A stretch of 64,000 nucleotides of DNA from Minisyncoccota bacterium (GCA_041651055.1 JBAZJW010000001.1:242661-306660); one strand, 5' to 3'. Numbered from the stretch's first letter, positions 2,867 to 54,039 are shown. The notes: generated from the letters alone by a model not told the origin. Program-made: numbers and translations.

Positions 2867-2895
2867 ATACCATAAAGCAATTTGTAAGTTAAAAA

Positions 2896-3005
2896 TTGCT
2901 TCAGATACGAGGCGGAAGAAATTTTTACGACCAAGACGTACGCATAGTACGTCGCGTGGAGGAAAAATTTCTTCCAACGAAGTAGATGGAGTGATTTTGA
3001 GCTTA
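2896..3005 (-). repeat. R1 structured repeat, copy A, between dnaJ stop and the trpS promoter
   Basis: Shares AGATACGAGG 5' flank, outer stem GGAAGAAATTTTT/AAAAATTTCTTCC, inner hairpin GACGTACGCATAGTACGTC and CGAAGTAGATGGAGTGATTTT 3' flank with copies at 7654, 14148, 39664. Confidence 0.7.
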
Positions 3006-4097
3006 CAAGCCCTCTTCTTTTAACCCGTCAATGTGAGTTAGAGCTTTCTTCGAAAGCTTCTTCGGCATATGAATATCCAATTTCACAAGAACATCTCCTC
3101 TCTTTCCTTTTTCATGAATATACGGAACACCTCGAGAACGCACACGGAGTATTTCTCCTGTAGCTGCACCGGATGGAATGTCGATATCAATAGAACCATC
3201 GAGTCCATCAATCGTATGCTTCACACCGAGTAAGGCATCAGTGAGTTTGATACTGTGCGTAATACTCAAATCGTTTCCTTCACGCTTCCACACTTTGTGT
3301 GGTGTAACATTTATTTTTACATACAAATCCCCGGTCGTTCCACCTGAGACAGCTTCTCCCATTTGTGACATACGAATCATTTCGCCATTTGCGATTCCTG
3401 CCGGAATCGCAATATTCACTTCTTCACGAGAGTTCACAATACCGTTGCCCTTACAATCATGACACTTCTCTTCAGGAACTTTCCCTGTACCACGACATGC
3501 ATCACACGTATGTACGGTCTGGAAATTACCCATGAATGTTTTCTTCACATCATGCACTTTTCCTTGACCATTACAGGTCGTACAGGTTTTCATTTTTGTT
3601 CCAACTTTTGCCCCCGTGCCTGTACATGTCTTACATGTATTTACTTTCGATAGCAAAACGTTTCTCTCTGTACCAAAGATGGCTTCTGCAAATGGGATGT
3701 CAATTTCAAGTGAAATGTCTCGTCCGCGTTTAGGGCGTGATCCGAAACCGTTGCCTCCTTGTCCACCAAATATATCTCCGAATATATCTCCGAGATCACC
3801 AAAATCAAATTCCATACCCTGGAAGTCTGATTGATTGAATCCACCACCGAACCCTCCGAAGCCTCCCGCTTGTGGTCCTTGACCATTGAATGTCTGACCG
3901 TACGTATCGTATTCTTTTCGCTTCTTTTCGTCAGAGAGTGTTTGATAGGCTTCGTTTATTTCCTTAAACTTCGCTTCATCCCCTCCCTTTTTGTCAGGAT
4001 GATACTTGGCCGCAAGTTTATAGAACGCCTTTTTTATATCGTCTTTTGACGCCCCCTTATCTACCCCAAGCACGTTGTAATAGTCTTTAGTTGCCAT
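3003..4097 (-). CDS. dnaJ: chaperone DnaJ
   Basis: J domain with HPD, G/F-rich linker, four CxxCxGxG zinc-finger repeats. Confidence 0.95.
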
Positions 4098-4798: not shown

Positions 4799-6685
4799 TT
4801 ACGCCTGTGGTTCGTCTTTCTTTTCTTCTGTATCTGTATTTTCTGTTGTCTGTTCACTGTTTTCTGTTGGCTTTACTTGATCATTAGCAGACTTCATCGC
4901 CTCCCCTATTTTCATCATTTTTTCAGAGAGTGATTCTGTCGCCTTTTTGACTGCTTCTATCTCTCCACCTTCACGAACTTTTTTCACTTCATCGATTGCA
5001 TCAGTAACTTCTTTCTTAATATCATCACTGATTTTTCCTTCAGCATCTTTGAGTGCCTTCTCTGCAGTATGAACCATCGCGTCTGCCATATTTTTAGCTT
5101 CCACATGTTCCATCTTTTTCTTATCCTCATCAGCATGAGCTTCCGCATCCTGCTGCATACGCTTGATATCTTCATCAGAGAGACCACTTGAAGCTTCGAT
5201 ACGAATAGACTGAGCCTTACCGGATGTTTTGTCCAAGGCTTTCACATTCAAGATTCCATTGGCATCCACATCGAAGGTCACTTCCACCTGTGGCATACCG
5301 CGTGGTGCTGGAGGAATACCATCCAAGATAAATCTACCGAGCGACTTGTTGTCTGCTGCGAGTGGTCGTTCACCTTGTGTGATGTGAATCTCCACTGATG
5401 TCTGATTATCCGCTGCCGTCGAGAATGTCTGAGACTTCGATGTTGGAATAGTCATATTCTTTTCTACAAGCTTCGTCGCGACACCTCCCATTGTCTCGAT
5501 ACCAAGAGAAAGTGGAATCACATCGAGCAAGAGAACATCCTTCACATCACCTTGTAGCACACCAGCCTGTACAGCCGCACCGAGTGCCACCACTTCGTCT
5601 GGGTTAATCGTTCGGTTCGGTTCTTTACCAAAGAGTGCCTTCACCGCCTCCACAATCATAGGCATGCGCGTCTGACCTCCAACCATAATAATTTCATTAA
5701 TTTCTTCTTTCTTAAATGGTGAAGCGTCAATTGCGCGCTTTGTGATTTCGATAGAACGATCAACGAATTCTTTTGAAAGTTCTTCAAGCTTTGCACGAGT
5801 TACCTTTACAACTAAGTGCTTTGGTCCGTCTACACCTGAAGTGATGAATGGAAGGTTTATTTCCGTTTCCATTTGAGATGAAAGTTCGTGCTTTGCTTTT
5901 TCTGCAGCCTCATCGAGACGCTGAAGAGCGAGTGCATCGGTCGACACATCAATACCTTGATCCTTCTTGAATTCATCCGCAATGTATCTCACAAACATCT
6001 GATCGATATCACGACCACCCAAGTGTGAGTCTCCATCTACTGACTTCACTTCCACCACACCATCACCCACTTCGAGAATAGAGATGTCGAATGTTCCTCC
6101 TCCGAAGTCATACACGGCAATCTTTTCATTCTTCTGTGAATTGAATCCATACGCAAGAGCAGCGGCTGTTGGTTCTGGAATAATACGCATCACTTCAAGT
6201 CCGGCAATTTTTCCAGCAGCGATTGTCGCCTGACGCTGTACGTCGTTGAAATATGCGGGCACGGTAATAACAGCCTGTGTGATTGTCTCACCGAGCTTCG
6301 CTTCTACATCTGCTTTTATTTTCTGAAGAATCATCGCAGAAATTTCTTCTGGACGAGAATCCTTACCTCCGAGAGAAATGAGCACGCCACCATTGTCACT
6401 CGCTTTTATTTTGTATGCTACACGAGGAATGTCATTCTGTACTTCTTTATCAGCAAATGAATGACCCATGAAGCGCTTCACACCGTACACAGTGTTTTCT
6501 GGATTGGTTACTGCCTGACGCTTTGCAATCTGGCCGACAGCACGTTCACCATTTTTGTTCACTGAAACAACCGACGGAGTCGTACGGTTCCCTTCGAGGT
6601 TCTCGATGATTTTTGGCTGTCCAGCTTCGATGATTGCGACAGCACTGTTTGTTGTTCCCAAGTCAATTCCGATTATTTTTGCCAT
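4799..6685 (-). CDS. dnaK: chaperone DnaK (Hsp70)
   Basis: [18 protein letters not shown], IVLVGGxTRMP-type motifs over the full length. Confidence 0.97.
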
Positions 6686-6749: not shown

Positions 6750-6826
6750 GCTTCTAGCTTCTAGCTTTCAGTTTTTAACTTCCCCTTCTTCGCTTCTAGC
6801 TTCCGGCCTTAAGCTTCTAGCTTCTC
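6750..6826. promoter_or_regulatory. cluster of 3-4 direct repeats of GCTTCTAGCTTC between grpE stop and dnaK start
   Basis: gcttctagcttctagc, cgcttctagcttcc, aagcttctagcttctc. The last copy overlaps the grpE TAG stop. No CIRCE element present. Confidence 0.4.
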
Positions 6827-7485
6827 TCTTCCAGATGCCCTACATGCACTCGAGCGGGACGTAAAATTGTATCGTGCATGCGGTATCCACTCTGTAAGAT
6901 ACGTACAAGCGTATCATTTTCTTTCTCATTGGTAACAGGAACCATTTCCATACTTTCATGAAGATTCGGATCAAAGGTATCTCCAACGTTTCCGAATTGC
7001 GTGACACCTTCATTCTCAAGCACTGTTCTCAGTTGCCCAAAGATGTACTCAATACCGATTCTCCAATTCTGGTCTACCTTTTCCCATGCTTCCACATTCC
7101 CTTTTGCCATATCGTATGAATCAAGAACGGGAAGCAATTCTTCAATAAATCGTTTGGTGGAAAACTTTCTTTCAGAGAGACGGTTCGCATCTACTTCTTT
7201 TTTGAAGTTCATGTAATCCGCTCGTGTGCGCTGAGAAAGATCGAGATACTCCTGCTTCTCCCCTTCTAGCTTTTTAATTTTCTCTCGCAACTTTTTGATG
7301 GTACTACGAGCGTCTACTTCACCCTCCTCGTTTACATCCTCGAACGAAACATCATCAACTTCTGACTCGTTCTTCGTTCTTCGTTCTTCGTTAGGAGTTT
7401 CTCGCTCTGCACTTCTTACTTCTTGCTGTTCCTTGTTTTCTTCTTCATTATTCATATTGTTCAGTGTTCTAAGTTTAATAAACAC
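6817..7485 (-). CDS. grpE: nucleotide exchange factor GrpE
   Basis: GrpE C-terminal signature (DPNLHESMEMVP, ILRPARV) with an acidic N-terminal tail; start could be the internal Met at 7455. Confidence 0.9.
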   Translation of the reverse strand: MFIKLRTLNNMNNEEENKEQQEVRSAERETPNEERRTKNESEVDDVSFEDVNEEGEVDARSTIKKLREKIKKLEGEKQEYLDLSQRTRADYMNFKKEVDANRLSERKFSTKRFIEELLPVLDSYDMAKGNVEAWEKVDQNWRIGIEYIFGQLRTVLENEGVTQFGNVGDTFDPNLHESMEMVPVTNEKENDTLVRILQSGYRMHDTILRPARVHVGHLEERS

Positions 7486-7653
7486 GGTCTCTTTATCTAT
7501 TGCAGTTCTATCGTTACTATCGTGTCTTTCGTGTCAGCAGTATACCATTTTCCCTCACTCTCTGTTTATAGATTATTTAAGAAAATAAGTCAAGAAAAAA
7601 GCCTCCTTTCGGAGACTTTTTACGATTAACGCTTTGATAAACGGTATAAATAT

Positions 7654-7780
7654 TGAGATGAATGCAAGGCGTGAGAAATTTTTGCGACCAACAAATCTAT
7701 TTTGGTCCAAGACCTGAATTTGCTAATTCAGATGCGTGGAGGAAAAATTTCGAGAAACGCAGCAGTCGCTCAATATTTTA
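7654..7780 (-). repeat. R1 structured repeat, copy B (divergent core) between rpsI and grpE
   Basis: Keeps flanks GAGAAATTTTTGCGACCAA and GCGTGGAGGAAAAATTTC (outer stem GAAATTTTT/AAAAATTTC) but carries a different inner hairpin CTGAATTtgctAATTCAG. Confidence 0.6.
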
Positions 7781-7840
7781 TCGTTTAGACCACCCATTCG
7801 ACTCGCCTAAGGCAGACAAGGCTCGCTCAGGGTGTCGTAA

Positions 7841-7884
7841 GCGATAATAATAAAATCCCCTTTCGGGGATTTTATTATTATCGC
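7841..7884. terminator. perfect 20-bp palindromic hairpin GCGATAATAATAAAATCCCC-TTTC-GGGGATTTTATTATTATCGC overlapping the rpsI stop codon
   Basis: Seen directly; the rpsI stop codon lies inside the 3' arm. Confidence 0.7.
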
Positions 7885-8285
7885 TTACTCCAAGTTGGTG
7901 CCTTTCGAGCTTTCTTAAGCCCGAACTTCTTTCGTTCCACCTGACGTGAATCACGCTTTAGGAATCCAAGTTTCTTAAGGGTATTCTTGATATCTTCATC
8001 ACGAAGAACAAGTGTGCGAGAAATACCATGACGAACAGATTCTGCTTGTGCATGAATACCTCCACCAGAAACGTGTACGGTGATAGTAAATTTTTCCGCA
8101 ACTTCACTCTTTGTGATTGCTTCCTGTGCGATCATTTGAAGTTCTTCTGTTACGAAGTAATCCTTCATTTCTTTATCGTTTACCGTAAACGAAGTCTTTG
8201 TCGCAGGAGTAATGCGAACACGAGCAGTTGCTGTCTTTCTGCGTCCTACGGCTTCAATGTAACGGTTTTTTGTATCTGCTGACAT
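7878..8285 (-). CDS. rpsI: 30S ribosomal protein S9
   Basis: Ends ...KKARKAPTWSKR; S9 signature throughout. Confidence 0.95.
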   Translation of the reverse strand: MSADTKNRYIEAVGRRKTATARVRITPATKTSFTVNDKEMKDYFVTEELQMIAQEAITKSEVAEKFTITVHVSGGGIHAQAESVRHGISRTLVLRDEDIKNTLKKLGFLKRDSRQVERKKFGLKKARKAPTWSKR

Positions 8286-14100: not shown

Positions 14101-14147
14101 CACAAAATACTTCGAACCAACTACTCAGAATCACTTTGTTCTAAAAT

Positions 14148-14252
14148 TATTTTAGATGCGAGGCACGGAGAAGCGAAAGAGGAGACGTAGTTAATGCTAC
14201 GTTGACGAATGAGAGAGGCTCCGTAACGAAGCAGATGAAATAATTTTAAGAC
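14148..14252 (-). repeat. R1 structured repeat, copy C, abutting the alaS stop codon
   Basis: TTAGATGCGAGG flank, outer stem ACGGAG/CTCCGT (a different sequence at the same position as in other copies), inner hairpin GACGTAGTTAATGCTACGTTGACG identical to copy D, 3' flank CGAAGCAGATGAAATAATTTTAAG. Confidence 0.7.
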
Positions 14253-16195
14253 AAAGCTGCTTTTATGCGGCGGACACCGGCCGACACAGCCTCTTCTTTT
14301 ACGATTTTGAATGGTCCACTTGTGCTATTTGAGTCGTGCCCTTGGTTGCTACCAAGTGCATCTCGAGTACCAACGGCGAGTACGCCTGTACTCTCGACAT
14401 GCGGCCCACCACACATTTCAATTGAGAATAGATCAGCATCACCACGAGACTTTCCTTCACCTATTCTATAAATACTCACCTTGTCACCATACTTATCACT
14501 AAAGAGGCCCATTGCTCCGCGAGCCTTTGCTTCTTCGATAGATATTTCTTCGCGAATCACTGGAAGATTTTCTTGTATCTTAGCATTGATGATATCTTCA
14601 ACCTGTTTTTTCTGTTCATCGGTCATCTTTTCTCCGTATGCAAAGTCGAAACGTAAGCGCTCAGGTGTAATGTTGGAACCTTTCTGTACAACACTCGGAC
14701 CGAGTACTGTCTGAAGCGCCTGATGAAGCATGTGAGTCGCTGTGTGATACTTAGTTTCCATTTCTCCGTCACCTCCCAATCCACCTTTGAACTTTCCAGC
14801 AGATGCCGTACGAGAACTTTCTGAATGTTTATTTTTTTCTTCCGCAAAACTTACCATATCAACCGCCAACCCTTTTTCTTTTGCCAATTCTTCTGTGAGT
14901 TCAATTGGAAATCCATACGACTGCAGTAAATCAAAAGCATCAACACCAGAAATATTTCCACCCGTCAGCTTTTCGAACTGCTTAATACCCTTTTCAAGCG
15001 TTGCCCTGAATTTAGTTTCCTCTTTATCGAGTTCATTCAAAATTACTTCTCGTTTTTCTTCGAGGTTCTTGTATTCATCTTTGTAGACGTCGATAAACGA
15101 AGCTCCGATTTCTTTGGTGAAATTTTCAGTCACACCCAAGTTACGAGCAAAGCGCACCGCTCGACGAATAAGACGACGCACGAAATACATCTGATCTTTA
15201 TTTCCTGGCATCACACCATCACTAATGAGAAATGTCGCTGAACGAATATGATCAAGTACGACACGGTATGCATACACTTCAATATCACTTGTACCATATA
15301 CTTTCCCTGAAAGTCTCTCGATTGTTTTCTTTGGTGCATCGAATACATCGATATTAAACATGTCAGGGTCATTACGAAGCGCTGCAGCATATCGCTCAAG
15401 CCCACTACCATGATCCACGTTCATTTGAGGAAGCTCTTCAAAGCCTGTGCCTACTTTCTTGTATTGCATGAACACATTGTTTCCTATTTCGAGGAAACGT
15501 CCACAGTCACAGTTCACATGACAAGGCGAGGCCTTGTAAGCACTGTTCTCGTGCATCTTTTTCTCAAGCGTCGGATCAAAATCATAAAACATTTCAGAGT
15601 CCGGTCCGCCTGGTTCACCTTCAGGCATATTTGCTGGCACACCACTTCGTGACCACCAATTCTTCTTCTCACTGTAATAAAAAATCTTTTCGCCGTCATA
15701 TATCCCTCCTTCTGGATTTTCATTTATCTTCGCAGCTATCCCCTTCTCCGCGAAAAGCTTCTGCCACAACTCTGCTGAATAGGTATCTCGTGGCACACCA
15801 AGCGCGTCATTACCTGCAAAACAGGTTACATAAAAATTATTCGGATCGAGTTTAAGTTCATCGATAAGAAATGTCCACATCCATGTAATTTCTTCTTCTT
15901 TGAAATAATCTCCGAATGACCAGTTGCCGAGCATCTCAAAGAATGTCGTATGACGATTGTCCCCCACCTCTTCTATATCTCCAGAACGAAACGCTTTCTG
16001 TGAGTCAGCAATACGAAGCCCGAGCGGGTGAGGTTGACCAAGAAGATATGGAAGCATCGGTTGCATTCCACTGCCCGTAAAGAGTGTCGTTGGGTCATTT
16101 TCTGGTACAAGAGAAGCGCTCGGGACAATGGCGTGTCCTTTCTCTTTCATATATTCAAGAAACTTGGAACGGATTTGGTTGACAGTAAGTAGCAT
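14246..16195 (-). CDS. alaS: alanyl-tRNA synthetase, truncated form (catalytic plus editing domains, no C-Ala domain)
   Basis: Class II catalytic core and editing-domain HxxxH (HTATHMLHQAL), CGGPH; only 649 aa. Confidence 0.9.
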   Translation of the reverse strand: MLLTVNQIRSKFLEYMKEKGHAIVPSASLVPENDPTTLFTGSGMQPMLPYLLGQPHPLGLRIADSQKAFRSGDIEEVGDNRHTTFFEMLGNWSFGDYFKEEEITWMWTFLIDELKLDPNNFYVTCFAGNDALGVPRDTYSAELWQKLFAEKGIAAKINENPEGGIYDGEKIFYYSEKKNWWSRSGVPANMPEGEPGGPDSEMFYDFDPTLEKKMHENSAYKASPCHVNCDCGRFLEIGNNVFMQYKKVGTGFEELPQMNVDHGSGLERYAAALRNDPDMFNIDVFDAPKKTIERLSGKVYGTSDIEVYAYRVVLDHIRSATFLISDGVMPGNKDQMYFVRRLIRRAVRFARNLGVTENFTKEIGASFIDVYKDEYKNLEEKREVILNELDKEETKFRATLEKGIKQFEKLTGGNISGVDAFDLLQSYGFPIELTEELAKEKGLAVDMVSFAEEKNKHSESSRTASAGKFKGGLGGDGEMETKYHTATHMLHQALQTVLGPSVVQKGSNITPERLRFDFAYGEKMTDEQKKQVEDIINAKIQENLPVIREEISIEEAKARGAMGLFSDKYGDKVSIYRIGEGKSRGDADLFSIEMCGGPHVESTGVLAVGTRDALGSNQGHDSNSTSGPFKIVKEEAVSAGVRRIKAALS

Positions 16196-17677: not shown

Positions 17678-17695
17678 AGTAAAAACTACTATAAC

Positions 17696-17726
17696 AAAAA
17701 AGAGTAGCTTTTACTACTCTTTTTTG
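17696..17726. terminator. bidirectional terminator AGAGTAG-cttttа-CTACTCT with T runs
   Basis: 7-bp stem and T5-6 on both strands. Confidence 0.6.
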
Positions 17727-17730
17727 TTAT

Positions 17731-17961
17731 TTAATCTTGGAATAACCCTTGCAGTTCTTTTTGGTACTTTTTCATCACATCGAGGGAGGCATACATTTCT
17801 GGTTTGCCTTGCTTGGTAAGAACTTCGATTTCCTTAGCAATCTTCGAAAAAAGTTCAGGATTCTTTTCTACTGCTTTCGCGAGAAGTTCCTGCTGATCTT
17901 TCGGAAGACCTTTCGTTCCATGCTTTACCGCCTGCTTTACAAAAAAATCACGAATAGACAT
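17731..17961 (-). CDS. small hypothetical protein (76 aa from MSIRDFF)
   Basis: Start trimmed to avoid overlap with the DsbA-like gene; lysine-rich helical protein of unknown function. Confidence 0.4.
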   Translation of the reverse strand: MSIRDFFVKQAVKHGTKGLPKDQQELLAKAVEKNPELFSKIAKEIEVLTKQGKPEMYASLDVMKKYQKELQGLFQD

Positions 17962-18619: not shown

Positions 18620-18663
18620 AATATGAGAAACAGTATACCAGTTTACAGCTTACAGTCTACAGA

Positions 18664-18700
18664 AAACAAAGAGCGGCGCCTACGGCGCCGCTCTTTGTTT
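18664..18700. terminator. GC-rich palindromic terminator AAAGAGCGGCGCC-TAC-GGCGCCGCTCTTT
   Basis: 13-bp perfect stem, T run on the minus side after the methyltransferase gene. Confidence 0.75.
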
Positions 18701-18728
18701 TCTATCTCTCTCCTTTATGCTCTCCCCT

Positions 18729-24056: not shown

Positions 24057-24159
24057 AACCATTATACTCCACTTTTGTTCTACAGCACTAGGAAATGAAG
24101 TGGATAAGTCGAGAAACAGTTTATAGTTACTAGTTTTTAGTTTCTAGTAAATACCTCAA

Positions 24160-24199
24160 TACATAAAAAGCGCGTCCTTCGGACGCGCTTTTTATGTAT
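24160..24199. terminator. perfect palindromic bidirectional terminator ATACATAAAAAGCGCGTCC-TTC-GGACGCGCTTTTTATGTAT
   Basis: 18-bp arms with A/T runs on both sides. Confidence 0.8.
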
Positions 24200-24209
24200 A
24201 CTTAATATA

Positions 24210-37163: not shown

Positions 37164-38330
37164 ATGAAACCAGATCATTCATCTCTTGCAAAAGAGAGAA
37201 GTCGCACGGGTATAGGTACGTTTACTGAAGGTGGAACGGTAGGGAAAGCTATCCGTGACGCAGAAGTCATGGAAAGACGAGCAATGTACGTTATCAAACT
37301 TGATGATAAAGGAAATGTTCGTGAACATTACCGCAACCCCCCTTTTGAAACACTTCTTGATTGCATCGTTGTCCTCGCACCTGCAATATTCCAAGGTGTA
37401 AGAATAGAAGAAGCTGTCGCAATGGAAATTGGCCTGAGTCGTACGGCACCAGGAAAGGCGATTGAAATTAAAGCGGATAGACCTGACTGTAAAAAACAGA
37501 AGGAGGTCATTCAGCAAAGACTACACATCGGAATCCTTCCCTGGCACGTCGTCGAAAAGCTACTACCAACCCTTTGGATCGCAATACAGCAATGTATTGA
37601 TAAAAAAATGGAAGGGTGGACAAGAGCGCGGTTCATTCAGAGCCCAGATTCAGGCAGCGAAAATCGTAACAAGAAACGTCTTTGTGTTTACGAGTCATGG
37701 ATGACAATTCGTGTTCCAAAAGAATATGCGTTGGTCTATACCATACTGCGACTCAAGGACGAATCCGACAAACTGAAGCCTGGAAAAAACTACGCCGAGG
37801 TAGCAGAGTCTGTTTCTCGAGAGCTTAATCTCTTTCGAAATCTTAACCCATCTCATCATGAAAGGTATTCAGATGAAGTCTTAAAAAGATCTGGCACTCT
37901 AAGATGGATGGCTGATTGGATGAAAAAGAAAGTCGAGTTTCATGGTTACACCATGCGCTCGCTTAAAGCTGTGCGGAAATTATTGAAGGAAAGAAGTCCA
38001 CAAGACCTCGCTCTCTTTAATACCGTGTGTCGAGTGTTTAGGGTTCCAGAAGCCCCGCCTGACATTTTTCTTGATGTCCACGAGCCACTGTTGGGTAACA
38101 AGAAAAAACAGCTACTCCTTGAGTGTCCACTCAGACCACATCGGGTGTACAAGTATGAAAAGCGCAGAAAGCTCACTCATGCACACGCACCTGATTGCTT
38201 CACCATTGCTATCGTCGGCAGTCATGCTCATTTGGAGAAGCTTGATGCTCGTAACACTCTCAACCGTATCAAAACAGCCAGAGAAACGAGAAAGTTCGTT
38301 CCCGACGACGACTCAGACATCCCCTTCTAA
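37164..38330 (+). CDS. hypothetical 388-aa protein, first gene of a two-gene plus-strand module
   Basis: No motif recognised by eye; several HxH/His-rich patches near the C-terminus (THAHAPDC, GSHAHLEKL); weak purine-rich RBS. Confidence 0.6.
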   Translation: MKPDHSSLAKERSRTGIGTFTEGGTVGKAIRDAEVMERRAMYVIKLDDKGNVREHYRNPPFETLLDCIVVLAPAIFQGVRIEEAVAMEIGLSRTAPGKAIEIKADRPDCKKQKEVIQQRLHIGILPWHVVEKLLPTLWIAIQQCIDKKMEGWTRARFIQSPDSGSENRNKKRLCVYESWMTIRVPKEYALVYTILRLKDESDKLKPGKNYAEVAESVSRELNLFRNLNPSHHERYSDEVLKRSGTLRWMADWMKKKVEFHGYTMRSLKAVRKLLKERSPQDLALFNTVCRVFRVPEAPPDIFLDVHEPLLGNKKKQLLLECPLRPHRVYKYEKRRKLTHAHAPDCFTIAIVGSHAHLEKLDARNTLNRIKTARETRKFVPDDDSDIPF

Positions 38331-38349
38331 ACATTAAAAAGGAGCTCCC

Positions 38350-39558
38350 GTGAAAATAGCACATCTGTCCGTAGCAGGACTCAACACTTGTAGACAACAG
38401 GTGATCGCTGTTCCTCGCGGGGCACCAATCACCAGCACTCGCTTCTTCGCATCTCACGATGTGTTTGAAAACGACAACATGATCATGCATCTGGCGAAAG
38501 CAGAGGAGCTCATCCTTGCATTAACCGGTGCATACAGACGCGGTGAGTCTATGTTTCAAAGCGTTCGCGCTGAGACGCATGGACCACAGTACACCTATGT
38601 GCCAGGATACGAGCTCGGAAGAATTCGTGCTCGTCGAATGGACTACCTGCCAGGTGTTGAAGGTCCAGATATCAGAGTCATTAAAAAAGGAAGTCCGAGG
38701 CATCTCCTGTTCCTTTTCTTCGCGACACTTACAGACAGAAGGACGAAGAGTGGCGGCGACTTCGGTGTCTATGCTTCACACTGCAAAATCTACCACAAAC
38801 ATCCTGAGCTTTACACCTCATCTGCCATCTCTTGGAACAAGGGCGACCTTGGAAAACTCTTGAGTCGGTACAAAATTGGTGTCCCAAACCAATCCGCAGA
38901 ATATTGGATACGTTGTGCCGAGACACTTTTTGGAAATTATGGGGGAAACCCTGTACGTCTCTACGAAGAACACGGGAGTAACGTGGAAGGTATTCTGAAA
39001 TTCAAAGAAGCAGGAAAAAGGCTTGGCAAAAAAAATGGCGACAAGGAAAGTGGAGACCCTCTCCCTGGATATGGTCCCAAAATTGCCTCGCTATACGCTT
39101 TGTTTCTGGATGCGTTCGGCGCCTTGCCGTTTCCTGAGGATGCCTTTCCTGTTGATGTCCAGGTGCAGAGACTTTTCATTCAGTACGGTGCAATAACCAT
39201 GAAGACAAGAGTGTCAAATGCACTGATGGAAAAAACTATTAGACCCCTCGTGTGTCTTTTGGCCAAATTCCACGGACTGGATAAACAGGACATATCACAT
39301 GCGTTTTGGCTTTTGGGAAGCCAAGGATGCACCTCCTGTTCCCGAAGACTTAATGCACCAACGATATGCCCAATCTACTCGAAGTGCCTCGGTTGTCAGA
39401 ACACCGCGAACTACTTTGCGAAAGGTCTATGGGACCCCGCAGACGAACCAATGAAAAAAGGTGCTGCTACGGTTACGTTTGGAATGCTCGCAGAGCGCCC
39501 CACACGGTACAGCCGGAATCCGACAAAAAGCACCCAGATGCATTTGTTCACTGAATAG
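38350..39558 (+). CDS. HhH-GPD superfamily DNA-glycosylase-like protein with a C-terminal 4-Cys cluster and an N-terminal ~130-aa unknown domain
   Basis: GTG start with AAGGAG 5 nt upstream. HhH motif LPGYGPKIASLYALFLDAFGALPFPEDAFPVDVQVQRL (compare EndoIII LPGVGRKTA...FPVDTHV) with Lys and Asp positions conserved. Cys cluster CTSCSRRLNAPTICPIYSKCLGC. Confidence 0.65.
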   Translation: MKIAHLSVAGLNTCRQQVIAVPRGAPITSTRFFASHDVFENDNMIMHLAKAEELILALTGAYRRGESMFQSVRAETHGPQYTYVPGYELGRIRARRMDYLPGVEGPDIRVIKKGSPRHLLFLFFATLTDRRTKSGGDFGVYASHCKIYHKHPELYTSSAISWNKGDLGKLLSRYKIGVPNQSAEYWIRCAETLFGNYGGNPVRLYEEHGSNVEGILKFKEAGKRLGKKNGDKESGDPLPGYGPKIASLYALFLDAFGALPFPEDAFPVDVQVQRLFIQYGAITMKTRVSNALMEKTIRPLVCLLAKFHGLDKQDISHAFWLLGSQGCTSCSRRLNAPTICPIYSKCLGCQNTANYFAKGLWDPADEPMKKGAATVTFGMLAERPTRYSRNPTKSTQMHLFTE

Positions 39559-39625: not shown

Positions 39626-39663
39626 ATAAAATAAATCCATTCAACATACCAAACACTAAAAAT

Positions 39664-39766
39664 TGTTTTAGATACGAGGAGCCTAGGAATTTTTCTAGGA
39701 GACGTAGTTAATGCTACGTTGACGAAGAAAAATTCCGTAGCGACAAAGTAGATGAAATAATTTTTA
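39664..39766 (-). repeat. R1 structured repeat, copy D, abutting the stop codon of the second mreB
   Basis: TTTTAGATACGAGG, outer stem GGAATTTTT/AAAAATTCC, inner hairpin GACGTAGTTAATGCTACGTTGACG, 3' flank CAAAGTAGATGAAATAATTTTTAG. Confidence 0.7.
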
Positions 39767-40777
39767 GCGTTTGGCAAAGATACTGCGTTTGTAAGTATCG
39801 AGATGTTCAAGAGCTATACCTGTCCCCTTCGCCACACAATAGAACGCATCCTCTGCGAGAACCGCTTTGACCCCCGTACGTCTCTCTACTAAGTCTGGGA
39901 AATGACGCAACATCGATGTCCCCCCTGACATAATAATTCCATTATCAATAATATCTGACGCGAGTTCAGGAGGAGTCTCTTGAAGCACATCTTTGATTGC
40001 TTTAATCATTAAACGAAGTTCTTTATCGATCGCCTTTACAATTTCATTCGTTCGAATCTCTACAGTGCGTGGAAGCCCTGCAATAAAATCTCGCCCCTTC
40101 ACTTTCATGGAAAGCTCTTCTTCAACAGGCAGAGCACTTCCTATTTTTATTTTTATTTCTTCAGCAGTCTGGTCTCCAATCGCGAGGTTATATGTCTTTT
40201 TAATGTAATCAATAATTGCCTGATCAATTTTGTTGCCCGCGCATTTCACCGAAGTACTACAAACAATACCGCCAAGAGAAATAACCGCCACGTCTGTCGT
40301 ACCTCCTCCGATATCGACAATCATTCTTCCTTGCGCCTCATGAATAGGAATACCTGCACCGATAGCAGCCAAGATAGGCTCCTTCACCACGTATGCATTT
40401 CGTGCACCTGCCTTTAATGCCGCTTCAATAACCGCACGACGTTCCGTTGAGGTCACTCCTGCCGGCACAGAGACCATCACATCTGGTTTGAAAAAAGTAA
40501 ATCCACCGAGCGCTTTGTGAATATAATACCGAAGCATCGCTTCTGTCACACGATAGTCCGCGATCACACCATCACGCATCGGACGATATGCAATAATCGA
40601 GTCCGGTGTCTTTCCGATCATGTCTTTGGCTTCTGTTCCCACTGCCATAATCTTATTATCAATTTCAGACACCGCGACGACAGATGGCTCCACAAGGACA
40701 ACGCCCTTTCCTGGGACATACACAAGCGTGTTGGCCGTTCCTAAATCGATACCTAGTTTCTTGGAGAAAAATCCCAT
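39764..40777 (-). CDS. mreB: second MreB-family actin homolog (Mbl-like paralog)
   Basis: LGIDLGTANTLVY, DIGGGTTD; 337 aa; distinct from the copy at 30504. Confidence 0.9.
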   Translation of the reverse strand: MGFFSKKLGIDLGTANTLVYVPGKGVVLVEPSVVAVSEIDNKIMAVGTEAKDMIGKTPDSIIAYRPMRDGVIADYRVTEAMLRYYIHKALGGFTFFKPDVMVSVPAGVTSTERRAVIEAALKAGARNAYVVKEPILAAIGAGIPIHEAQGRMIVDIGGGTTDVAVISLGGIVCSTSVKCAGNKIDQAIIDYIKKTYNLAIGDQTAEEIKIKIGSALPVEEELSMKVKGRDFIAGLPRTVEIRTNEIVKAIDKELRLMIKAIKDVLQETPPELASDIIDNGIIMSGGTSMLRHFPDLVERRTGVKAVLAEDAFYCVAKGTGIALEHLDTYKRSIFAKR

Positions 40778-40962: not shown

Positions 40963-42825
40963 ATGAAAGTGCTCACCGTCGCCCCACTTGCAAATGGGAT
41001 TCCCTATGAGGAACTTTCCTATTTTTCAAAAGACGACGTGAATCCTGGTGACCTCGTAGAAATAACCATCAAGCGACGTGTATGTAAAGCACTTGTATTA
41101 GACGGACATGACGCACAAGAAGAACGCCAATCGCTTCGTCACGCTTCATTTAATTTGAAAAAAATATCAAAGGTCGTCACCAAACAATTTCTTCCTCCAA
41201 AATTATGGAATGCACTTTCCTTTTCTGCATCCTATCTCGTACGGCCACTCGGCACACTTATCTACGACCTTCTCTCAGAAAGATCTTTCGAAACATTAAC
41301 CCCTGTCACGGTACAGACAGAAGCGAAAGGCTTCGAATTACTCTTGCTTGAACAAAGTTATGAAAATAGAATCACGAGGTACAAGACAACGATACGAGAA
41401 TCATTTTCAAAAAAATATTCTCTGGTACTTTTTTTTCCCACCATCACCGACCTCGAATACGCTCGTGCAGAACTCATAAAAGGAATCGATGAGTATGCCG
41501 TCACCCTCCACAGTGGATTAACCGAGAAACAATACAAGGAAGCACAAAAACAAATCACCGAGAATCCTCATCCACTTCTCATTCTTTCGACACCGTCACT
41601 CTTGCCGTGGATACGCAACGATTTAGGACTTGTTATTATAGAACGTGAACACAGTCACTACTACTACACTCACGGTACACAAGGATACGATATGCGATTC
41701 GTTATAGAGCAGCTCGCTCGTGGAAGCGGTATCCCCTGCTTACTCGGATCGCACATGCTCACCCTTCGCGCGCACATGCTCTACAAAACAAAAGACGCAC
41801 ACGAAGTTATGCCGCTGCAATTTCGAAACGATGCGTCTATTTCTGTTATACCAATGATTGATGAAAATAAAAGCGCCAGTCCATATCTCTCACGAGCCGC
41901 ACTCTCTATGCTTCATACTGCAAAAGTCGCCGAGCATGGACACTTCTTTCTCTATGCACACAGAAAAGGAATGTATCCGACAACGGTCTGTTCTGACTGC
42001 GGAACACTCTTTACATGCATCACGTGTAATCGTCCGTATGTCCTTCACAAAATAGCTGGCATGCGTACCTACGTGTGTCATGGTTGTGAAAATATCGTAC
42101 AACTAAATGATGACACGACACTCGCTTGTAAACATTGTGGTGGCTGGCGTATGCAAACACTCGGCATCGCGACCAGTGGCGTCGAAGAAGAACTGCGTCG
42201 TCTCGGTCTTCCACTTTTTGTAATTGATGGAGAAAACACTCCCACACGTGCCAAAGTAAAAAAGGTATACAAAGAGTGGCAAGAGTCCGTGTATGGCGTT
42301 TTGATCGGAACAGAAATGGCACACAATATCATACAAGAGTGTGATGGCATTATTATTCTGTCGCTTGATTCTCTTTTTTCACTGCCAGAATATCGTACCG
42401 ATGAAAAGATTCTCAACCTCGTCACAGAAATGGCGGAGAAGGTAATTCCTGGTGCGGAATATGGAGGCAAACTTATTCTTCAAACACGCCTCAAAAACAT
42501 GCCCGTAATTAAGCAGCTCACCGCGCCAAGCTTTAGAGAAGTGTTCGACACACTTCTCAAAGAGCGAGAGCAGTTTCTTTTACCGCCATACTATACCGTC
42601 ATCAAAGCATCGTTTGATAATTTGGAAGACGCTCTTCGTAGCCGTATGGAACAAGAACTTGAACCATATGTCGTCGAATGGTTCGAGCAAGGTCGTGGGG
42701 TTACCCTTCTTTTTATTCACGTGAAAGAAACTGAGTGGGCCAACAACCCTTCTGTACGTGATCGTGTACGACGTATCGTGTATGACGGGCACCCTCAGGT
42801 TAACCCTCTACACTTCTTCATCTAA
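40963..42825 (+). CDS. priA: primosomal protein N' (PriA)-like with degenerate helicase motifs
   Basis: N-terminal 3'-DNA-binding domain pattern and Cys-rich zinc region (CSDCGTLFTCITCNRP...CHGCEN...CKHCGG), but no GxGKT Walker A and EREH in place of DEEH. Confidence 0.65.
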   Translation: MKVLTVAPLANGIPYEELSYFSKDDVNPGDLVEITIKRRVCKALVLDGHDAQEERQSLRHASFNLKKISKVVTKQFLPPKLWNALSFSASYLVRPLGTLIYDLLSERSFETLTPVTVQTEAKGFELLLLEQSYENRITRYKTTIRESFSKKYSLVLFFPTITDLEYARAELIKGIDEYAVTLHSGLTEKQYKEAQKQITENPHPLLILSTPSLLPWIRNDLGLVIIEREHSHYYYTHGTQGYDMRFVIEQLARGSGIPCLLGSHMLTLRAHMLYKTKDAHEVMPLQFRNDASISVIPMIDENKSASPYLSRAALSMLHTAKVAEHGHFFLYAHRKGMYPTTVCSDCGTLFTCITCNRPYVLHKIAGMRTYVCHGCENIVQLNDDTTLACKHCGGWRMQTLGIATSGVEEELRRLGLPLFVIDGENTPTRAKVKKVYKEWQESVYGVLIGTEMAHNIIQECDGIIILSLDSLFSLPEYRTDEKILNLVTEMAEKVIPGAEYGGKLILQTRLKNMPVIKQLTAPSFREVFDTLLKEREQFLLPPYYTVIKASFDNLEDALRSRMEQELEPYVVEWFEQGRGVTLLFIHVKETEWANNPSVRDRVRRIVYDGHPQVNPLHFFI

Positions 42826-43014
42826 CAGAATTTGCATACGTGGCGATCTTCTTTGTCAAAACTCATTATTTCCTCGTCACTGTACTATTCGTACACCTTC
42901 TTGAAAAGAATGGTTTTTCCTCGAATCTCATCCACGTATACAAATCCTAATACACAAAGAAATGAATTGCTGTGTACTCTTTTTGCTTTAAGCCCTTCGT
43001 GGTAGAGTATAATC

Positions 43015-44462: not shown

Positions 44463-44487
44463 CAGTCGAGAGTTGAGAGTTTACAGA

Positions 44488-44524
44488 TATTACAAAAGCG
44501 GTGCTGAAGGCACCGCTTTTGTAA
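44488..44524. terminator. bidirectional terminator AAAAGCGGTGC-TGAAG-GCACCGCTTTT
   Basis: 11-bp stem and flanking A/T runs between fmt and the PPIase gene. Confidence 0.8.
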
Positions 44525-44554
44525 TATTCATTTAGAAGTAGTTCGCCAGAATTT

Positions 44555-46455: not shown

Positions 46456-46530
46456 TCCGCGGTAGCTCAGCGGTAGAGCAGCTCGCTGTTAACGAGTTGG
46501 TCGTAGGTTCGATCCCTACCCGCGGAGCCA
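46456..46530 (+). tRNA. tRNA-Asn (anticodon GUU), CCA encoded
   Basis: Hand-folded cloverleaf: acceptor TCCGCGG/CCGCGGA, D arm GCTC-AGCGGTA-GAGC, anticodon arm GCTCG-CTGTTAA-CGAGT, variable loop TGGTC, T arm GTAGG-TTCGATC-CCTAC, discriminator G, CCA. Confidence 0.9.
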
Positions 46531-46537
46531 AGCATTG

Positions 46538-46577
46538 AAAACTAAAATACCCCTTTCATGGGGGTATTTTAGTTTTC
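46538..46577 (+). terminator. perfect hairpin AAAACTAAAATACCCC-TTTCATG-GGGGTATTTTAGTTTT after the tRNA
   Basis: 16-bp arms. Confidence 0.7.
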
Positions 46578-46593
46578 AACAGTTTCCCAGCGG

Positions 46594-49410: not shown

Positions 49411-49818
49411 ATGAAAAATAATATACTTTTTGTTTCAAGTCTCTTGGCTCTCGCTGTCGGATTACTTATCGGATATTCTGTCTGGGGTACACGTGCCAAT
49501 GAAAACAACGTAATGTCTTCATCAACATTTGGACACAGAATGCCAAACGGACAAATGATGAACACCTACAGCGGAATGGATATGACAACGACAATGAACG
49601 GAATGATGCAGGAATTGCAGGGTAAAAATGGAGACGCTTTTGATCAAGCATTTTTATCACAGATGATCGTGCATCATCAGGGTGCTGTCGTTATGGCAGA
49701 AGCTGTGCTTAAGACATCAAAAAGGCCAGAGCTTCTTAAGCTTGCGAAGGATATTATCACAGCACAAACTAAAGAGATTGAGATGATGCAAGGTTGGGAG
49801 AGGACATGGTTTAAATAG
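49411..49818 (+). CDS. DUF305-family secreted protein with a Met-rich segment (copper-resistance-associated family)
   Basis: Signal/TM anchor; MPNGQMMNTYSGMDMTTTMNGMM Met-rich motif; DUF305 signature FDQAFLSQMIVHHQGAVVMAE. Confidence 0.7.
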   Translation: MKNNILFVSSLLALAVGLLIGYSVWGTRANENNVMSSSTFGHRMPNGQMMNTYSGMDMTTTMNGMMQELQGKNGDAFDQAFLSQMIVHHQGAVVMAEAVLKTSKRPELLKLAKDIITAQTKEIEMMQGWERTWFK

Positions 49819-49832
49819 TTTTTGTACAACAA

Positions 49833-49860
49833 TAAAAGCGCCCGGCAGGGCGCTTTTATT
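49833..49860 (+). terminator. terminator AAAAGCGCCC-GGCA-GGGCGCTTTT
   Basis: 10-bp GC stem with flanking A/T tracts after the DUF305 gene. Confidence 0.8.
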
Positions 49861-49879
49861 GTTGCCTCATCACTTTACC

Positions 49880-52284: not shown

Positions 52285-52307
52285 ACAATACCACTATTGA
52301 AAAAAAG

Positions 52308-52333
52308 AAAAAGAGCGCTTAAGCGCTCTTTTT
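52308..52333. terminator. bidirectional terminator AAAAAGAGCGCTTAAGCGCTCTTTTT
   Basis: Perfect palindrome between the convergent 51316 and 52353 genes. Confidence 0.8.
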
Positions 52334-52352
52334 CTTTATGAATGATTTTCTC

Positions 52353-53941: not shown

Positions 53942-53978
53942 GTTTTAGTTTATAGGTTACAGGTTTTAGAAAATATGA

Positions 53979-54016
53979 AAACAAAGAGCGGCCATGAAGT
54001 GGCCGCTCTTTGTTTT
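53979..54016. terminator. terminator AAACAAAGAGCGGCC-ATGAAGT-GGCCGCTCTTTGTTT
   Basis: 15-bp stem between the convergent nitroreductase and nrnA genes. Confidence 0.8.
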
Positions 54017-54039
54017 ACATAGGGTGGCCCTATGTATAC

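Follow-up and report, generated by a model that had tools for sequence, protein, structure and literature searches.

The 64,000-nucleotide stretch of a Minisyncoccota bacterium genome considered here (GCA_041651055.1 JBAZJW010000001.1:242661-306660; hereafter, the window) carries several copies of a structured repeat at the ends of housekeeping genes, one of which, at positions 39664-39766, overlies the stop codon of mreB. A preliminary description, made from the sequence alone, had listed four copies, behind dnaJ, rpsI, alaS and mreB, and NCBIfam assignments agree with all four gene names (dnaJ, 3003-4097; rpsI, 7878-8285; a short alaS, 14246-16195; mreB, 39764-40777; all on the minus strand). 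A covariance model (CM) was built from 78 aligned family sequences and then run over the window, which contains four intact copies, A, C, D and E, together with a decayed relative, B. Three members of the original list, A (2896-3005), C (14148-14252) and D (39664-39766), are indeed homologous and align well in pairwise comparison, whereas B aligns only in part, and the fifth member, E, was absent from that list.

Copy A extends over 2881-3009 on the plus strand (88.1 bits, E 7e-27), with a left arm TTAAAAATTGCTTC, a core AGATACGAGG...AACGAAGTAGATG at 2903-2988 and a right arm GAGTGATTTTGAG. Copy C occupies 14135-14255 on the same strand (93.8 bits, E 9e-29; core 14154-14237), and its right arm AAATAATTTTA overlaps the alaS stop, whereas copy D, at 39649-39774, also on the plus strand (90.1 bits, E 2e-27; core 39670-39754), has the arms CTAAAAATTGTTTT (left) and AAATAATTTTTAG (right), the latter enclosing the mreB stop. 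As had been proposed, the TAA codons of dnaJ (3003-3005), alaS (14246-14248) and mreB (39764-39766) lie within the element or a few nucleotides from its end, the listed outer stems GGAAGAAATTTTT/AAAAATTTCTTCC, GGAATTTTT/AAAAATTCC and ACGGAG/CTCCGT are present and paired, and the 24-nt inner hairpin is identical between C and D. The outermost pairing is specific to each copy and reaches into the gene: TTTGTAAG/CTTACAAG of copy A takes in the dnaJ stop, TTTGTTC/AGACAAA of copy C extends into the final alaS codons, and CCAAACAC/GCGTTTGG of copy D spans the final mreB codons. A 23-nt motif from the 3' side, AACGAAGTAGATGAAATAATTTT, occurs three times in the window within three mismatches and not once in 100 shuffles.

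The claim that the repeat always stands directly 3' of minus-strand stop codons holds for these three copies only. Copy E (42820-42954, minus strand; 48.8 bits, E 8e-14), unnoticed at first, is their mirror image: it adjoins the TAA (42823-42825) of a plus-strand ORF for a 620-aa PriA-like protein (40963-42825), so that the family is not confined to minus-strand genes, and its arms, CAGAATTTGCATACGTGG and CCACGTATACAAATCC, have no A- or T-runs. Copy B (7648-7785, plus strand) lies beyond the terminator of rpsI itself (7833-7891) and abuts no stop codon. Aligned with A, it shows 75% column identity and shares with it GAAATTTTTGCGACCAA, GCGTGGAGGAAAAATTTC and the middle stem; it has mutations in the core loops (GAATGCAAGG; AACGCAGCAGTCG), and in place of the apical hairpin stands an insert longer by 23 nt. 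It yields no CM match at E<=10 and folds weakly on both strands (z about -3.5).

On the strand that folds, every intact copy forms one long imperfect hairpin, or rod, composed of an outer stem, a G·A/G·A loop, a 3-bp URC/GYA helix, a GA/GAA loop, a variable helix and a CGUAC-loop-GUACG hairpin. The 5' side runs from a lineage-specific outer arm, which usually contains an A-run, through A-GA-URC-GA-GG into the variable helix; the apex reads GAG-GCGUAC-loop-GUACGY-YGAG; and the 3' side returns from the variable helix through AAC-RAA-GYA-GA-U to an outer arm that usually contains a U-run. What had been taken for single-stranded flanks is actually the outer stem and the 3-bp helix bordered by G·A loops: AAAATTGTTTT pairs with AAATAATTTT, and the UAC of AGAUACGAGG with the GUA of AAGUAGAUG, leaving GA/GA and GA/RAA loops (R, G or A). 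To our knowledge, none of the ribozyme, kink-turn, loop E/sarcin-ricin loop (SRL) or signal recognition particle (SRP) structures fits the covarying 3-bp helix.

The structure statistics refer to 78 non-redundant members aligned with MAFFT. RNAalifold finds 28 pairs with compensatory double changes at 24 of them, so that the compensatory variation seen between the window copies holds family-wide. The partners are complementary in 91.0% of the pairing cells, compared with 32-40% when they are slid by 1-3 columns, and none of 500 shuffles attains the observed values. The middle helix, in which the variation had originally been noticed, is left unaligned by MAFFT and hence does not enter the pair counts; by eye, it is complementary in individual sequences. 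The R and Y positions of the search pattern described below co-vary as a base pair (GC 57, AU 20, other 1), and stable RNA tetraloops are not preferred among the apical loops. There is no conserved ORF, since the ATG within AGATGC is lost in AGATAC variants.

The two strands are not equivalent. In the window copies, the folding strand is the one opposite to the abutting gene, with predicted energies of -46.8 (plus) versus -29.3 kcal/mol (minus) for D, -38.3 versus -23.5 for C, -47.4 versus -31.8 for A and, in the inverted copy E, -51.7 (minus) versus -26.1 (plus); for the gene-sense strand, too, the fold is stronger than in shuffles (z -4.7 to -6.6). Across the 78 members, the folding strand is the more stable one in 77 (mean -67.6 versus -53.8 kcal/mol), and the asymmetry is the same with DNA as with RNA parameters. 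The wobble pairs tell the two strands apart, given that an A-C mismatch on the folding strand is a G-U pair on the other: the folding strand has 108 G-U and 7 A-C combinations in the proximal outer stem, 60 and 4 in the apical hairpin, and 45 and 28 in the distal outer stem. The distal stem provides an internal control that speaks against mutation alone as the cause, and the conserved core is accordingly under constraint on only one strand. From the G-U excess and the fold energies together, it follows that the mRNA of the abutting gene carries the weakly folding, C/U-rich complement.

Beyond the window, we scanned one genome per GTDB species for AGATRCGAGG-N(55-80)-ACRAAGYAGATG. The matches listed include more than 119 loci, whereas we estimate that about 14 would be expected by chance (8/4^22 per start x 26 gap lengths x 2 strands x 5.96e11 bases), and the search for further copies that the preliminary description had called for yielded both E in the window and numerous members elsewhere. 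Nearly all of the matches listed have complementary flanking arms, which the pattern does not demand; these are 14-22 nt long, conserved within subfamilies and different between them. Among the same matches, the element spreads over more than a dozen bacterial phyla, with hosts in the candidate phyla radiation (CPR; Nomura-, Pacei-, Kaiser-, Peregrini- and Saccharibacteria), Rokubacteria/Methylomirabilota, many Deltaproteobacteria and Bdellovibrionota, Aminicenantes, Acidobacteria, Nitrospirota, Chloroflexi, Bacteroidales, Porticoccaceae, Treponema, Clostridia and Sporomusa. Most of these hosts are metagenome-assembled genomes (MAGs), so some of the taxon assignments may be binning errors. A phage or plasmid origin was considered and rejected, with a single match in 2.9 million viral contigs and none among the plasmids of PLSDB.

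At the outset, the repeat could not be matched to a known family. No Rfam 15 family covers the element, either at gathering thresholds in the window and 29 loci, where gathering scores were reached only by tRNA/rRNA and by TD-1/TD-2, none of them over the element, or in E-value mode with copy D. A literature search, based on both sequence words and concepts, did not recover the family; its coverage was limited, and a prior description is possible. The TD-1/TD-2 motifs lie near element copies in two Treponema MAGs (L114, 595-868, and L096, 5036-5135; loci outside the window carry L numbers), with two TD-1 copies ending 90 nt upstream of the element in L114, and judging from this genus, different repeat families seem to cluster.

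The placement relative to genes follows a rule that extends over phyla. The right-hand neighbour lies on the strand opposite to the folding strand in 82 of 103 cases, while left neighbours are unbiased (57 plus, 44 minus). At loci below 60% GC, where ORF calls are reliable, and with only ORFs counted that are 100 aa or longer and lie within 80 nt, the stop codon of a convergent gene is found 3-24 nt beyond ...CAGATG in 50 cases, with no stop at the other end in 39, compared with 14 at the left end, of which 3 have a stop there alone. A count in a 45-nt window gives 46 versus 2; high-GC loci are noisier (28 versus 20). The stop codons used are TAA (30), TAG (26) and TGA (19). The geometry is therefore tail-to-tail, as first seen in the window, with the folding strand nearly always antisense to the gene whose stop touches the 3' end of the element. 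Since copy E is inverted while the sign of the GC skew is constant across the window, the orientation appears to follow the gene rather than the replication fork; a replication-based orientation was rejected on these grounds and on the unbiased left neighbours. We likewise discarded the idea that the bias arises from a stop supplied by one arm, which fits the Rokubacteria type and not the CPR type, where both ends are similar. A different arrangement is found in Sporomusa rhizae (L013, 1971-7176), where the core lies in sense orientation within an rRNA operon, 24 nt before the 5' end of the 23S gene; the near-identical locus L118 belongs to the same genus, and the operon order is 16S-5S-element-23S.

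Comparison of related genomes and of the element ends points to mobility. Copy D is present in three closely related strains (L001, L002 and L003) and absent after mreB in four relatives (L124, L125, L127 and L128) with MreB 82-93% identical, in which holB follows mreB within 0-67 nt; one relative without D also lacks E. The empty site of E is seen in the relative L131, where 61 nt separate the PriA-like gene from def, versus 189 nt in the window, and where the CM finds no match in 11 kb. The junctions of E in the window read ...ATC TA[A CAGAATTTGC...CAAATCC]TA ATACAC, the element standing in brackets, and fit an element that entered at the TA of the TAA stop, with a duplication of TA, and whose first base would have restored the stop codon. 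Insertion of E into the loop of a pre-existing terminator finds no support, the empty site in L131 being without a hairpin. In Porticoccaceae, seven loci carry nearly identical elements in mostly unrelated flanks. Rearranged copies also occur: a core-deleted one in L017, a nested insertion in L027, core-less hairpins with the same arms in L026 (one of them, at 6353, directly after a TAA) and tandem partial copies in L020, a Bdellovibrionales MAG, where two 5'-truncated units at 2010-2330 lie in tandem directly upstream of a full copy.

The termini themselves are lineage-specific (CAGG..., AAAATTG... or GGACTGTCG...), and one form reads TA|GCAGGCTGCTC.... Ends of the CAG type comprise TA|GCAGGCTG in Rokubacteria and deltaproteobacteria, TA|GCAGCTTG in Porticoccaceae and TA|ACAGAATTTG in copy E; the CPR-type ends, TA|AAAATTG, are unlike these. 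The combination of TA with CAG-type ends presumably resembles the ends of IS630/Tc1-mariner elements (Tc1/Himar1), a likeness that we take as a lead only. In the Rokubacteria/delta type, complete elements carry an additional outer arm on the left, the third arm (CAGGATGCNGAAAAAC); TAG or TAA stands before it in 9 of the 11 cases recognised, and the right arm is followed by CTAG, CTAA, TTAG, TTAA or TAAG in 14 of 33; the ends read TA|GCAGG...CCTGC|TA, and TAG|CAGG...CCTG|CTA flanks are common. The third arm (TAG/TAA-CAGGATGCNGAAAAAC; L007 at 3856, L022, L029, L041, L061, L075 and L113) is a better match to the right arm than is the left arm. Direct flanks of the form TTAG...TTAG are found in L020, L032 and L086. 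As TA usually borders the element, whose ends begin with G or A, an insertion at the TA of a TAA or TAG codon would rebuild the stop, as is seen at the empty site of E and in the TAG|CAGG...CCTG|CTA flanks.

The neighbourhood of mreB shows two further peculiarities. Between mreB and holB, the window has two plus-strand ORFs of 388 and 402 aa (37164-39558) without a Pfam or NCBIfam match, and as the relatives have mreB directly before holB, this pair, too, looks like an insertion, beside copy D. Several close MreB homologues (P0001, P0007, P0010, P0013, P0015 and P0003) are called 7-37 residues longer than the 337 aa of the window protein; P0001 (344 aa) has no element after its gene, so that its extra length does not stem from the repeat.

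In most subfamilies, the arms are arranged as an A-run, a short GC stem, the core, a stem and a T-run (for example, CAAAAAGGTCC...GGCCTTTTTC, GAAAAGGTATC...ATACCTTTTC and TAAAAATTG...AATTTTTA), a layout reminiscent of an intrinsic terminator that works in both directions and has received a large structured insert. As its ordinary terminators, this genome has bidirectional palindromes that are long (17-24 bp) and perfect and that carry both an A-run and a T-run (7833-7891, 46529-46586, 44479-44536, 18653-18710, 24151-24206, 49818-49872, 52295-52345, 53967-54027 and 17684-17736). Their palindromes are matched by the outer part of the CM, and the remaining weak CM matches in the window are such terminators, hit with the arm part of the model alone; copies A, C and D do not have the GC-rich stem typical of them. 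Some ordinary terminators take in the last codons and the stop of the upstream gene, as does that of rpsI, a perfect 24-bp palindrome covering AGU AAG CGA UAA (-39.9 kcal/mol), and pairing into the last codons may thus be a genome-wide property, reflecting selection for long stems or quasi-palindrome correction. The separate hairpin noted downstream of copy A on the minus strand was recovered at 2812-2868 (-24.0 kcal/mol, z -6.4) and is probably the terminator of the dnaJ operon, and copy D lies behind the terminator of its left-hand gene. With these two separate terminators, and with copy E and the Sporomusa copy lacking the runs, a terminator role is not universal. At 2866-2902, an inverted copy of the left arm of A lies upstream of that arm (AAGCAATTT ... 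AAATTGCTT), and the two could form an alternative small hairpin.

On balance, we lean towards the reading that the element is non-autonomous mobile DNA of the kind represented by miniature transposable elements with inverted repeats (MITEs) and REPINs, built as one long imperfect hairpin. It has the general properties of a MITE, namely a length of 125-155 bp, no coding capacity, multiple copies, inverted arms and presence/absence polymorphism, and the suggestion of a MITE with a TAA/TTA target, one of the options initially raised, gains support from the unrelated flanks, the empty sites, the truncated, tandem and deleted copies and the stop-rebuilding TA flanks. TA-target MITEs such as RUP of S. 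pneumoniae, mobilised by IS630-Spn1, and Correia of Neisseria are likewise ORF-less, multi-copy, intergenic elements of ~100-160 bp that form a whole-element hairpin, have TA flanks and differ in presence between genomes. However, each of those is restricted to one genus, whereas the present element spans many phyla and is conserved in its interior over its termini, its fold is strand-specific and covarying, its orientation to genes is nearly fixed and no parent insertion sequence was found. The pneumococcal SPRITE, a mobile terminator-like repeat with AAAA/TTTT ends and a long stem, is enriched near the 3' ends of coding sequences, especially between convergent genes (PMC3049150). Unlike the element described here, SPRITE is a simple 18-bp duplex with a U-rich tract and without a conserved structured core; it is confined to mitis-group streptococci and has no sequence similarity to our family.

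The mobile-hairpin reading also meets several difficulties. Within 3.5 kb of about 120 copies, all-against-all clustering of 1,777 neighbouring ORFs revealed neither a transposase nor any other gene that recurs, and no autonomous copies, with core halves parted by a gene, were found, but only truncated, tandem and nested ones. Left TA flanks are irregular, some copies have no TA on one side, and the flanks of some CPR copies are inverted, as in L004 (TT...AA) and L006 (AA...TT), so that a target duplication is tentative. The interior is conserved while the termini differ by lineage, which is the opposite of what a DDE-type MITE needs, even if part of the interior conservation stems from the search pattern. 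A DDE mechanism also predicts no orientation preference, so that the observed 39:3 bias would require an additional selective or mechanistic cause. The copy-specific outer pairing of A, C and D includes the last codons and the stop of the gene, and in the strain L003, where mreB ends in AAG AGG TAG instead of AAA CGC TAA, the far arm has changed to match; an arm that tracks synonymous changes is not explained by simple insertion. Finally, with A- and T-runs absent from copy E and from the rRNA-operon copy of Sporomusa, the terminator behaviour that forms part of the same reading is not general.

If the element is indeed mobile, the strand-specific rod would be its own cis-acting structure, read by some protein in single-stranded form, as single-stranded DNA (ssDNA) or antisense RNA, the protein being either a mobilising enzyme or a host factor. 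The A-run and T-run arms of most lineages would in addition confer the behaviour of a bidirectional intrinsic terminator. With a core that folds on just one strand, hairpin closure should be easier while the folding strand is being transcribed, and termination is accordingly predicted to be strong against transcription running toward the 3' end of the gene and weaker or leaky in the direction of the gene. Such direction dependence would account for the tolerance of, or preference for, this orientation at the ends of genes and within operons. The family is best filed as a MITE-like, TA-targeting mobile hairpin whose core is strand-specific and which may have been co-opted as a terminator. A further possibility, to which we give distinctly less credence, is that the element is no ordinary DDE-type MITE but belongs to a cross-phylum class of structure-specific elements. 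A conserved protein would then read the rod in its single-stranded state, and the element would be brought to stop codons in one orientation, antisense to the gene, representing either a new mechanism of transposition or recombination tied to gene ends or a new and widespread antisense RNA or insulator module.

Two alternatives place the function in RNA, and they call for opposite strands. The folding strand might encode an antisense or convergent small RNA, or a terminator or insulator, that ends at the T-run and is bound by protein through the G·A loops, the family being spread by transposition or recombination. The G-U-rich pairing and covariation on that strand are what such an RNA would show, as are the U-run after the proximal stem in most lineages and the shielding of copy D from its left-hand gene by the terminator of that gene, as if it were an independent unit; in the Sporomusa rRNA operon, where the element stands in sense, the folding strand is certainly transcribed. 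Upstream of the folding strand, however, no conserved or recurrent promoter was found, promoter-like matches being at chance level, and copies A, C and E stand in co-directional gene strings with no plus-sense gene to drive transcription. The apical loops do not favour stable RNA tetraloops, and an asymmetry that persists with DNA parameters does not require RNA, which leaves this alternative unlikely in our judgment. Still less probable, and the poorest candidate of all those weighed, is a cis-acting RNA in the 3' untranslated region (3'UTR) on the strand of the gene, with a role in stability, processing, protein binding or termination, as initially proposed. The fixed orientation directly after the stop codon speaks for it, and copy A, between the dnaJ stop and the separate terminator, is expected to be co-transcribed. 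The better-than-shuffled fold of the gene-sense strand also agrees with it, as does the outermost pairing, which includes the last codons and in D forms a G·U on the mRNA strand that corresponds to an A·C on the other; and in the Rokubacteria/delta type, the full hairpin is followed, in the gene sense, by a U-run that the third arm provides. Nevertheless, the strand asymmetry contradicts this proposal: in the proximal stem and the apical hairpin together, 168 G-U versus 11 A-C combinations place selection of the core on the opposite strand, which is the more stable one in all but one of the 78 members, and the tandem G·A loops turn into C/U mismatches in the mRNA. The absence of the element after the same genes in close relatives shows, moreover, that those genes do not need it.

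The remaining alternative, that the element is a site for structure-specific recombination or transposition recognised as folded ssDNA, we regard as rather improbable. It would account for a fold that is conserved over the sequence of the arms and for the folding of only one strand, and it has analogues in integron attC sites, REP/REPIN sequences mobilised by RAYT HUH enzymes, and oriT hairpins. The folding, or bottom, strand of an integron attC site is antisense to the ORF, and our element shares with attC the position directly after an ORF, recognition by structure and the antisense orientation of the folding strand; in contrast to attC, it has no R''/R' boxes (RYYYAAC...GTTRRRY), no cassette arrays and no integrase, and it stands beside dnaJ, alaS, mreB and priA-like housekeeping genes in conserved synteny. 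Repetitive extragenic palindromic (REP) sequences and REPINs, hairpins of about 100 nt that are recognised as folded single strands and persist in genomes, are palindromic repeats that lie downstream of genes, chiefly between ORFs in unidirectional or convergent arrangement (PMC3116915; PMC3733652). REPs are, however, lineage-specific units of 20-40 bp with a terminal GTAG or CGTC tag, whereas the present element has neither a terminal tag nor a two-REP build, GTAG occurring only within the 3' core loop in alternation with GCAG. No RAYT gene was found near the copies in the 8-kb pieces of host genomes, which held no recurrent gene, and within 3.5 kb of about 120 copies there is no gene for a Y1/HUH enzyme or an integrase. 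The sole, weak Rfam resemblance is to the lactis-plasmid motif (RF01742; 22.5 bits and E 0.15 against copy D, with a gathering score of 70), which likewise has two G·A-type loops parted by a 2-3-bp helix (xGAxACGAGx on the 5' strand). This motif, carried by 252 plasmid records, lies about 90 nt upstream of mobC and a relaxase gene in Lactococcus plasmids (L129 and L130, both 2501-2589), at the position expected for oriT, which gives the ssDNA alternative some encouragement; our element stands at chromosomal gene ends instead, and homology was rejected, as the CM finds no match in real examples of the motif. For genes co-oriented with replication, moreover, the folding strand would lie on the leading-strand template, which is rarely single-stranded, and the inversion of E relative to A, C and D without a change in the sign of the GC skew indicates that the orientation tracks the gene.

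Two features of the genes around the copies bear on the host rather than on the element. The grpE-dnaK-dnaJ cluster (window 6817-8285) has no hrcA upstream and is preceded by rpsI, and AlaS (14246-16195) is of the short form, about 650 aa (NF002436). Both are in keeping with a reduced CPR genome. The homologues of MreB are assigned to Parcubacteria/Paceibacterota, which places the host among the CPR/Patescibacteria.

The first observation on this repeat is essentially right and more general than the window alone could show. A MITE-like family that combines cross-phylum spread, a strand-specific covarying interior, stop-restoring ends and an antisense position is unusual, and the covarying interior together with the near-fixed tail-to-tail placement would point to either a targeting rule or selection acting via termination or antisense transcription. 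For genome annotation, the element is a marker of gene 3' ends, provides stop codons and may be misread as a 3'UTR regulator. If its breadth holds, from CPR, Rokubacteria, Deltaproteobacteria and Bdellovibrionota to Acidobacteria, Nitrospirota, Spirochaetes, Firmicutes and Gammaproteobacteria, the element would be among the most broadly distributed small bacterial repeats, yet it is absent from Rfam. The cultured Sporomusa hosts make it experimentally accessible. Even in reduced CPR genomes, selfish DNA that is or was recently active appears to be present, with about one copy in every 12 kb.

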